Of a stretch of DNA of 64,000 bases, positions 17,771 through 18,341 are shown one piece after another. The first letter of the stretch is position 1. Every line of letters starts with the position of its first letter. The translations under genes and the position numbers were made by a program. The stretch is from Escherichia phage Pinarejo, in sequence record PP925831.1; one strand, written 5' to 3'. The notes beneath the pieces are model-generated. The model was not told where the DNA came from. It saw nothing but the letters and a program-made list of their open reading frames with translations, and ran no database searches.

Positions 17771-17935
17771 TTACTCTTCTTTTTCTTTAGATTCCTCTTT
17801 TTTCTTTTTAGGAATCTGTTCAGGACCTTTATTTACTACAGCACCTGACGTTGTTCCAGTGGAGATATTTTTAGGATTACCACCTGAATCTCCAGCTACC
17901 ATATCTTCTTTGATAAATTCTTTATATGTTTTCAT
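17771..17935 (-). CDS. small protein (61.1 position)
   Basis: 54 aa ORF not in track; MKTYKEFIKEDMV... Confidence 0.4.
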   Translation of the reverse strand: MKTYKEFIKEDMVAGDSGGNPKNISTGTTSGAVVNKGPEQIPKKKKEESKEKEE

Positions 17936-17980
17936 ATTAACCTCTATTCATAAAAGCATTAAAAATTTGATCGTCAATAG
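17933..17980. repeat. 48 bp direct repeat, copy 1 (partner at 18294..18341)
   Basis: 46/48 identical; covers C-terminal codons, stop and next start codon. Confidence 0.8.
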
Positions 17981-18296
17981 ATGGTACAGTGATATCTTCC
18001 ATTTCATTTAATAAATCATTAATTTCGTCAGATAGCATAACACATGTACCCTGATTTCCAGTAATTGCTACTGCACAATGAAGAACATTTTCTTTATTAA
18101 ATTTTAAGTTAATATTTTCGTGATGAAAATCCTTTACCGCCGAATATACCTTTAAAATCAAATTATCTTTTACTATAATATACCCAACTTCACTGTTAAA
18201 ACGCGGTTCATAAAAGCCACAATGAATGATTTCATCTACTAAACTAAATGAAATTTTTTCCATATTTAAAAATGAAAGTTCAGAAGAAATATGCAT
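17937..18296 (-). CDS. hypothetical protein, single-domain paralog of next ORF
   Basis: 119 aa; C-terminal 13 aa and junction duplicated from 18298..18939. Confidence 0.45.
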   Translation of the reverse strand: MHISSELSFLNMEKISFSLVDEIIHCGFYEPRFNSEVGYIIVKDNLILKVYSAVKDFHHENINLKFNKENVLHCAVAITGNQGTCVMLSDEINDLLNEMEDITVPSIDDQIFNAFMNRG

Positions 18297-18341
18297 ATTA
18301 ACCTTTATTCATAAAAGCATTAAAAATTTGATCATCAATAG
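18294..18341. repeat. 48 bp direct repeat, copy 2
   Basis: see partner at 17933..17980. Confidence 0.8.

Follow-up and report, generated by a model that had tools for sequence, protein, structure and literature searches.

In a 64,000-nucleotide (nt) stretch of the genome of Escherichia phage Pinarejo (PP925831.1; hereafter the window), two nearly identical 49-base-pair (bp) direct repeats bracket a 119-amino-acid (aa) open reading frame (ORF) located directly downstream of adfA, the gene for anti-DarT factor A. We propose, with a probability of roughly 0.6, that these copies represent the common 3' end module of two AdfA-family genes, a module that serves several functions and is at the same time a substrate for loss, gain and exchange of the short gene as a cassette. 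Firm ground for this proposal is given by the anatomy of the copies, the identity of adfA, the position of promoter P61 in phage T4, the polymorphism of the locus in the phage population and the mosaic boundaries found at the copies.

According to this model, the module, situated in the slot between sp and 61.1 of the T-even "anti-toxin island", provides a C-terminal peptide together with a stop/Shine-Dalgarno/ATG arrangement that couples translation to the next gene; in Tequatroviruses it also carries the MotA-dependent promoter P61, firing towards the primase gene 61. As a side effect, a 49-bp patch of homology is placed on each side of the short gene. T-even recombination, either intragenomic or between co-infecting phages, would then use the module and the adjacent conserved flanks, with the outcome that a 358-361-bp cassette (ORF plus one module) is deleted, added or swapped. 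The copies would have remained nearly identical in DNA sequence, despite gene bodies diverged beyond easy recognition, because of stacked constraints combined with exchange between copies. Early transcripts from further upstream would allow the short gene to be translated through coupling to adfA; its product is most likely a counter-defence protein, expressed and with a target specificity of its own.

The window derives from a Tequatrovirus (T4-like phage); positions 17700-19300 are 99.6% identical to Shigella phage Sf21 and 99.3% identical to phage Elenatom. The gene order on the minus strand is that of T4 (41, dmd, 61.4/tifA, sp, 61.2, 61.1, 61), with the 119-aa ORF as an extra gene between 61.2 (adfA) and 61.1. 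The genes around adfA have been termed an anti-toxin-antitoxin island (PMC9391042); it holds the genes dmd, tifA and adfA, by which T-even phages inhibit the toxin-antitoxin defences of bacteria.

Anatomy of the repeated module

A repeat search of the whole 64-kb window with 3 mismatches allowed returned a single pair, 17933-17981 and 18294-18342, with 47/49 identical positions, a spacing of 361 and mismatches at 17944/18305 and 17973/18334. The repeat is real and far beyond chance, with 0 occurrences in 100 dinucleotide-preserving shuffles. A first reading of the window from its letters alone (the original prediction) had reported near-identical repeats of 48 nt, which is confirmed at 46/48 identity over that length and 47/49 over the extended one. 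Read on the minus strand, which is the coding one, the sequence of each copy is TCTATTGA[TC]GATCAAATTTTTAATGCTTTTATGAATA[AG]AGGTTAATATG. It spans the 14 final codons of a gene (S-I-D-D-Q-I-F-N-A-F-M-N-K/R-G), the stop codon TAA, a single T and the start codon ATG of the gene that follows. This composition of gene tail, stop and next start had been recognized correctly, except that 13 codons had been counted instead of 14, and the 119-aa ORF lies between the repeats as described. The elements of the locus are as follows.

17933..17981 (-): repeat copy 1, comprising the last 14 codons of the 119-aa ORF (17940-17981), its TAA (17937-17939) and the ATG of 61.1 (17933-17935)
17952-17961 (-): MotA-box-like TAATGCTTTT of copy 1, followed by a 12-nt spacer with the Shine-Dalgarno sequence GAGG and the -10 element TAATAT at 17934-17939
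18294..18342 (-): repeat copy 2, comprising the 14 terminal codons of adfA (18301-18342), the adfA stop TAA (18298-18300) and, at 18294-18296, the ATG of the 119-aa ORF
18313-18322 (-): MotA-box motif of copy 2, the same as in copy 1, with the -10 element at 18295-18300
17771..17935 (-): gene 61.1, 54 aa, the conserved flank downstream; its ATG overlaps the -10 element of copy 1
17937..18296 (-): 119-aa ORF (o119), probable short, tail-bearing member of the AdfA superfamily; phrog_4122, RB32ORF033c, annotated "61.2" in T2; behaves as a cassette that is present or absent and whose alleles are replaced
18298..18930 (-): adfA (T4 gene 61.2, anti-DarT factor A), 210 aa, PF23813 with E=4e-136
18932..19225 (-): sp (spackle), the conserved flank upstream of the variable slot

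The C-terminal peptide encoded by the module, SIDDQIFNAFMN[KR]G, is predicted to form a helix. Its DDQIFNAFM core is invariant in three families, namely AdfA, the short family (118-125 aa) and a 145-146-aa family (MX01_33, MN01_176; phrog_8539), and the tail peptide is conserved across the four genera Tequatro-, Mosig-, Dhaka- and Gaprivervirus. Codon changes in the tail between genera are mostly synonymous (TCT/TCA, GAT/GAC, CAA/CAG, GCT/GCA/GCC, TTT/TTC), a pattern indicative of protein-level selection across genera that the original prediction had missed.

At the end of the module, the junction (A/C/G)GAGGTTAATATG combines Shine-Dalgarno sequence, stop and next start. The same R-G-stop-T-ATG design is found at the dmd|tifA junction, CGAGGATAATATG. 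A 17-nt near-repeat (16/17), AGG(T/A)TAATATGCATATT, is present at the adfA|short-ORF and dmd|tifA junctions (18288-18304 and 19536-19552), and the genes downstream of it, the short ORF and tifA, both begin with M-H-I; it is a possible microhomology spanning tifA-sp-adfA.

The module further coincides with a mapped promoter. The T4 middle promoter P61 starts at 19122 (Hinton 2010, PMC2988021 Table 1). In T4 the 61.1 coding sequence occupies 18966-19130 with its ATG at 19130-19128, where the sequence reads ...TTTAATGCTTTTATGAATAGAGGTTAATATGAAAACA; combining these data places both the -10 element TAATAT and the MotA box TAATGCTTTT inside the module. The T4 -10 element overlaps the stop codon and the ATG of 61.1, and the start at 19122 is 7 nt past it. 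By this alignment the repeat contains the known promoter P61, which had likewise been overlooked. Compared with the middle-promoter consensus, (a/t)3TGCTTtA - 12 +/- 1 bp - TAtaaT, both copies in the window carry a MotA box with the GCTT core (TAATGCTTTT, 9/10 positions, final A replaced by T) and, after a 12-nt spacer, a TAATAT that conforms to TAnnnT at 12 +/- 1 bp past the box. Copy 1 is the positional and sequence orthologue of T4 P61, with 2/49 differences from the T4 module and an equal distance to the 61.1 ATG, and through it is the only copy with a mapped start. The window differs from T4, which has no orthologue of copy 2, in this second copy 361 bp upstream, before the short ORF. Starts are predicted at about 17927 (copy 1) and 18288 (copy 2), each just past the first ATG of the downstream gene, so that the transcripts would serve genes further down (61). 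Copy 2 may also act as a promoter; the depositors of phage Lutter annotated "promoter" on precisely the corresponding 27 nt of the two tails. A loose MotA-box/-10 pattern matched the window 24 times, compared to 7.9 +/- 3.1 expected, and both copies are among the matches. Two other matches, at 130 and 384, correspond to T4 PrIIB2/PrIIB1 (122 and 377); T4 middle-promoter positions seem to be largely conserved in this phage.

Variation in the sp-61.1 slot

Given that a tail-pattern scan of IMG/VR gave only 9 loci, the population survey was made on a collection of 50,697 phage records, which includes RefSeq/GenBank duplicates. The unique part of the short gene was found in 298 records, the unique part of adfA in 486, and the adfA-to-short-gene junction, which marks the presence of both genes, in 157. 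The comparison among T-even genomes suggested by the original prediction revealed all four states of presence and absence.

Neither gene, with sp-TAA-TTAGAGGCTAATATG-61.1: RB10
Short gene only: T2, HY01
adfA only: T4, T6
Both genes: window, AR1, wV7, RB68, Shfl2

The original prediction had named absence of the repeat from relatives carrying both genes as the finding that would speak against it; every natural two-gene genome examined retained the repeat, with 0-3 mismatches. Phage Ac3 (OK040907.1), with 6 mismatches in its repeat, initially seemed to be a natural two-gene genome in which the repeat had degenerated; it was excluded as its adfA is apparently recoded. The Ac3 AdfA protein is exactly that of AR1/RB68, yet 126/633 nt differ, all synonymously and including AGC/TCT serine swaps; the GC content of the gene is 42% vs 31%, while o119, 61.1 and the 5' part of the primase gene downstream are 100% identical and sp upstream is 96.6% identical. 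The deposited genome seems to include a synthetically recoded gene. In Gaprivervirus MN01, two tail-bearing genes are arranged in tandem, one of the 145-aa family followed by one of the short family, with tails that match at 39/49 positions at the DNA level.

Two records carry additional copies. Phage vB_Eco_CP has a third, solo copy of the module within a 59-nt tandem duplication that yields a 6-codon mini-ORF. In phage phiD1 the short gene is present twice, the two copies being separated by a stretch with Ns, possibly a repeat-induced assembly artefact; the phiD1 duplication was not used as evidence on account of these Ns.

An indication of exchange at the copies came from comparison of the window with KMB22. 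Synonymous divergence (dS) was 0.008 in adfA (99.5% identity), 0.41 in the body of the short ORF (82.4% identity), 0.13 in 61.1 and 61 (about 97% identity) and 0.31 in sp (92.9% identity). The densely spaced differences of the short gene occupy 17985-18293, i.e. they begin 4 nt past copy 1 and extend to the base immediately preceding copy 2. Selection on the protein cannot account for synonymous divergence that jumps 50-fold; the segments have different ancestry, and an allele has been replaced between boundaries set by the copies. The alleles of the modules are reassorted in the population as well: two types of adfA N-terminus, two types of short gene and their presence or absence are seen in most combinations. 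Within the 49 bp, sites 9/12 and site 38 occur in all four combinations of tail haplotypes, and in the window the short gene has a tail whose 5' end resembles that of adfA and whose 3' end is of the short-gene type. Within Tequatrovirus genomes the paralogous tails differ by 0-3 nt, compared to 7-8 nt between orthologous tails of different genera. The closer resemblance of the paralogous tails points to exchange between copies or to an additional constraint at the DNA level.

Efficient recombination in T4 is said to require roughly 50 bp of homology, as reportedly found by Singer and co-workers in 1982. In the same island, T4 has been observed to recombine at homologies of 6-10 bp (Srikant 2022, PMC9391042). 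Deletion by microhomology between the end of sp (TGAATAA) and the end of the tail (TGAATAGAGG) was considered for the junctions of RB10 and T2, and was rejected because the observed junction sequence was not reproduced.

Together, these comparative data support the suggestion that the repeats could mediate deletion or duplication of the ORF: the four states, the retention of the repeat and the mosaic block bounded by the copies are in line with it. No such event was seen de novo, and the crossovers traced in adfA-only recombinants lie upstream of the repeat. Repeat-mediated loss, gain or exchange of the short gene is well supported by comparison of the genomes, if not directly, and the actual crossovers may have taken place inside the 49 bp.

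The short gene and competing explanations

The long neighbour is adfA, a known counter-defence gene, which the original prediction had not recognized; it matches Pfam PF23813 over the full length of the family (451.5 bits, E=4e-136). It had been described as a protein of 213 aa. An ORF of this length exists from a GTG at 18939, whereas the probable true start is the ATG at 18928-18930, which directly follows the stop codon of sp (TAA-T-ATG) and yields the 210-aa protein annotated in relatives. AdfA is T4 gp61.2 and binds the DarT1 toxin (PMC11257639, PMC9391042). A single residue decides its activity, as in RB69 R164H, where H is active and R inactive (PMC11257639); this residue lies in the C-terminal half, to which the short ORF aligns. 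The equivalent position, His in T4, is Asn in the adfA product of both the window (codon 18409-18411) and KMB22. In the short ORF, His aligns with it in the window's allele, as opposed to Asn in the common one. In Elenatom (PP925844.1), the closest relative apart from Sf21, adfA is split in two by a 10-nt deletion (window 18642-18651), next to an intact 119-aa ORF of 100% identity.

The short ORF was assigned to phrog_4122 (E=3.5e-63). Its family comprises five clusters at 90% identity, and the precomputed Pfam annotation of all family clusters is PF23813. A profile search of 1.84 billion representatives added two more homologues (119 and 125 aa) and AdfA at E=2.8e-4. The family is restricted to T-even phages, the sole other match, the tandem-repeat protein P0024, being spurious. 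No PDB relative and no PADLOC match was found. The ORF passes the Pfam AdfA cut-off with 31.1 bits (T2 homologue: 32.5 bits) vs 27, the match being restricted to profile positions 129-211 and not extending over the whole AdfA profile. Removal of the 14-residue tail abolished the match (none at E<=1), and homologues from other genera match PF23813 by their last 14-17 residues only, with 16-26 bits. By these tests the Pfam assignment of the short gene rests on 14 residues.

Similarity beyond the tail was detected nevertheless. Without the tail, the o119 family profile aligned to full-length AdfA with hhalign P=0.004 over 59 columns, AdfA 111-174 in the C-terminal half, and the o119 body reached z=4.6 against this half in a Smith-Waterman comparison, a score matched by 3/2000 shuffles. 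A more diverse o119 profile gave P=0.0012 with the N-terminal and P=0.003 with the C-terminal half. All of these tail-free signals centre on an [IV]xVKDNxI beta-hairpin, and o119 and AdfA display the same order of secondary-structure elements. The body of o119, of about 105 residues, is the size of one domain and marginally similar to either half of AdfA. AlphaFold2 models of both family alignments had predicted local distance difference test (pLDDT) values of 43.8 and 54.1, too low for comparison of folds. The short ORF is thus probably a one-domain relative of AdfA, with the tail as the only strongly shared element. Its kinship, proposed originally as that of a single-domain paralog, appears real, though weaker than stated (tail-free P about 0.001-0.004). 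The companion idea of a two-domain neighbour formed by internal duplication has its only footing in the VKDN hairpin (N-terminal vs C-terminal half: z=1.5; hhalign P=0.002 over 11 columns). In Dhakavirus MX01 and Gaprivervirus MN01, the position of adfA is taken by the 145-146-aa family, whose resemblance to AdfA and to the short family is confined to the 14-residue tail; its body showed no significant similarity to either by hhalign (P about 0.1).

Several points weigh against the cassette model. Among the genomes compared, no de novo deletion or duplication event was found. The adfA-only genomes with AR1-like adfA (G157lw and P0010 loci) are inter-phage recombinants with crossovers 27-63 nt or more upstream of the repeat, and the G157lw and P0010/P0013 contigs were consequently rejected as fresh deletion products. 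The precise single-copy junction of T4 equally fits an ancestral state without the short gene. The duplication in phiD1 sits amid Ns, and an assembly error could explain the additional copy in CP. T4 is the only phage in which the promoter activity has been mapped, which limits such data to the orthologue of copy 1. The resistance of T2 to DarTG1 is due to AdfN and not to the short gene, for which no phenotype is on record in the literature. Finally, stacked functional constraints alone could account for the near-identity of the copies.

This last point can be extended to an account in which the copies are alike through the shared peptide, the ribosome-binding junction and, in Tequatroviruses, the promoter, and the rearrangements arise by ordinary recombination in the flanks, with no role for the repeat. 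The invariance of the peptide across four genera with synonymous variation, the location of P61 inside the module, the upstream crossovers of the traced adfA-only recombinants and the MN01 tails, just 39/49 alike in DNA although both genes are retained, are all compatible with such an account. It nevertheless appears unlikely to us, given that the divergent KMB22 block starts 4 nt after copy 1 and stops at the base before copy 2, that each of the four possible haplotype combinations is found within the 49 bp, that paralogous tails in Tequatrovirus are closer than orthologous tails between genera, and that CP has an extra tandem copy. Less probable still is a scenario in which the short ORF and the 145-aa family are unrelated to AdfA and acquired the promoter- and ribosome-binding-site-bearing module as their 3' end by recombination. 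It would fit with the loss of the Pfam AdfA match of the short ORF upon removal of the tail, with the matches of the other-genus homologues and the MX01 145-aa protein to PF23813 by the last 14-17 residues only, with the MN01 145-aa protein having no PF23813 match, and with the lack of significant similarity between the 145-aa body and either family (P about 0.1). This is opposed by the collinear and modestly significant similarity of the tail-free short ORF to AdfA (3/2000 shuffles; hhalign P 0.001-0.004), by the [IV]xVKDNxI hairpin and order of secondary structure common to both, and by the retention outside Tequatrovirus of the peptide and not of the DNA motif, the GCTT core of which is changed to GCAT or GCCT.

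That the short ORF is a recent, non-functional tandem copy of the 3' half of adfA in the course of decay would be suggested by its tandem position, its common 3' end and its absence from many relatives, but is hardly credible. Intact versions of the ORF are found in 298 records, orthologues of 119-125 aa exist in other genera, and T2-type phages carry the ORF alone, without adfA; Elenatom carries an intact short ORF next to a broken adfA. The ratio of nonsynonymous to synonymous divergence (dN/dS) between the short ORF alleles of the window and KMB22 is 0.37 at dS 0.41, and the divergence of the body from adfA is much too great for a copy made recently.

Related systems and neighbouring genes

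The short ORF resembles AdfA in occupying the same slot, in ending in the same 14-residue peptide and in passing the Pfam cut-off. It differs in its single domain-sized body. DarT binding has been reported for AdfA itself only, and the literature treats T2, which has the short gene only, as lacking adfA. This small, conserved AdfA-like gene of T2, AR1, wV7 and many therapeutic-type phages is a candidate counter-defence factor.

PeSL cassettes (PMC2839356, PMC4122927) resemble the locus in that accessory ORFs of a hyperplastic region are flanked by short regulatory repeats, and both coincide with boundaries of insertion, deletion and replacement between close relatives. However, PeSLs consist of a strong sigma70-type early promoter and a stem-loop terminator, while the module has no sigma70 -35-type early promoter; a search of 16700-19800 found no terminator-like site, and on the coding strand neither copy coincides with any of the sigma70-like sites listed. 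Moreover, PeSLs are intergenic, in contrast to the module, which forms the 14 terminal codons of two genes and thereby specifies a peptide under selection. The module therefore falls outside the PeSL definition. Recombination in the dmd-tifA region of T4 (Srikant 2022, PMC9391042) concerns the same island and likewise involves direct repeats that lead to amplification or deletion. Those events occurred at unique 6-10-bp microhomologies under laboratory selection, whereas we describe a standing 49-bp functional module with comparative evidence. A homing or mobile-element origin was rejected, as no nuclease or other Pfam domain was found. The locus is a tidy case of the known plasticity of T4-type genomes and not a novel class of element.

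One short module thus unites protein tail, translation junction and mapped promoter, bounds a gene in about half of the sequenced relatives, and offers a concrete, testable mechanism for gain, loss and exchange of counter-defence genes. More speculatively, it might be a portable gene-end "socket" (helix, stop/ribosome-binding site/ATG and middle promoter) common to at least three dissimilar families in the sp-61.1 slot of Tevenvirinae, with the common helix as a functional handle, e.g. for a shared partner or toxin class, and with the short gene as an anti-toxin factor. If this tentative idea were true, T-even phages could stack, swap or drop toxin-neutralising genes with primase expression undisturbed, and phages regarded as devoid of adfA, T2 among them, would possess in the short gene an anti-toxin factor that has gone unrecognised.

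The remaining genes of the region are the following.

16740..17768 (-): gene 61 (DNA primase), in T4 served by P61
about 19236-19544 (-): tifA/61.4 homologue, DUF7279, part of the "anti-TA island" (TA, toxin-antitoxin)
19546-19728 (-): dmd, part of the same island

The tifA/61.4 homologue has 102 aa in the window and in Elenatom; in T4 and KMB22 it has 85 aa. Its C-terminus appears to be lengthened by a 1-nt indel relative to KMB22, which also closes the gap to sp; a 120-aa ORF with a TTG start in this region is an over-extended call. Further downstream, the dam methyltransferase ORF (15627-16432, minus strand) encodes 230 aa followed by a separate ORF of 37 aa, in comparison to a T4 dam coding sequence of 780 nt. 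The 3' end of dam looks truncated or frameshifted in the window, and the Elenatom annotation is identical.

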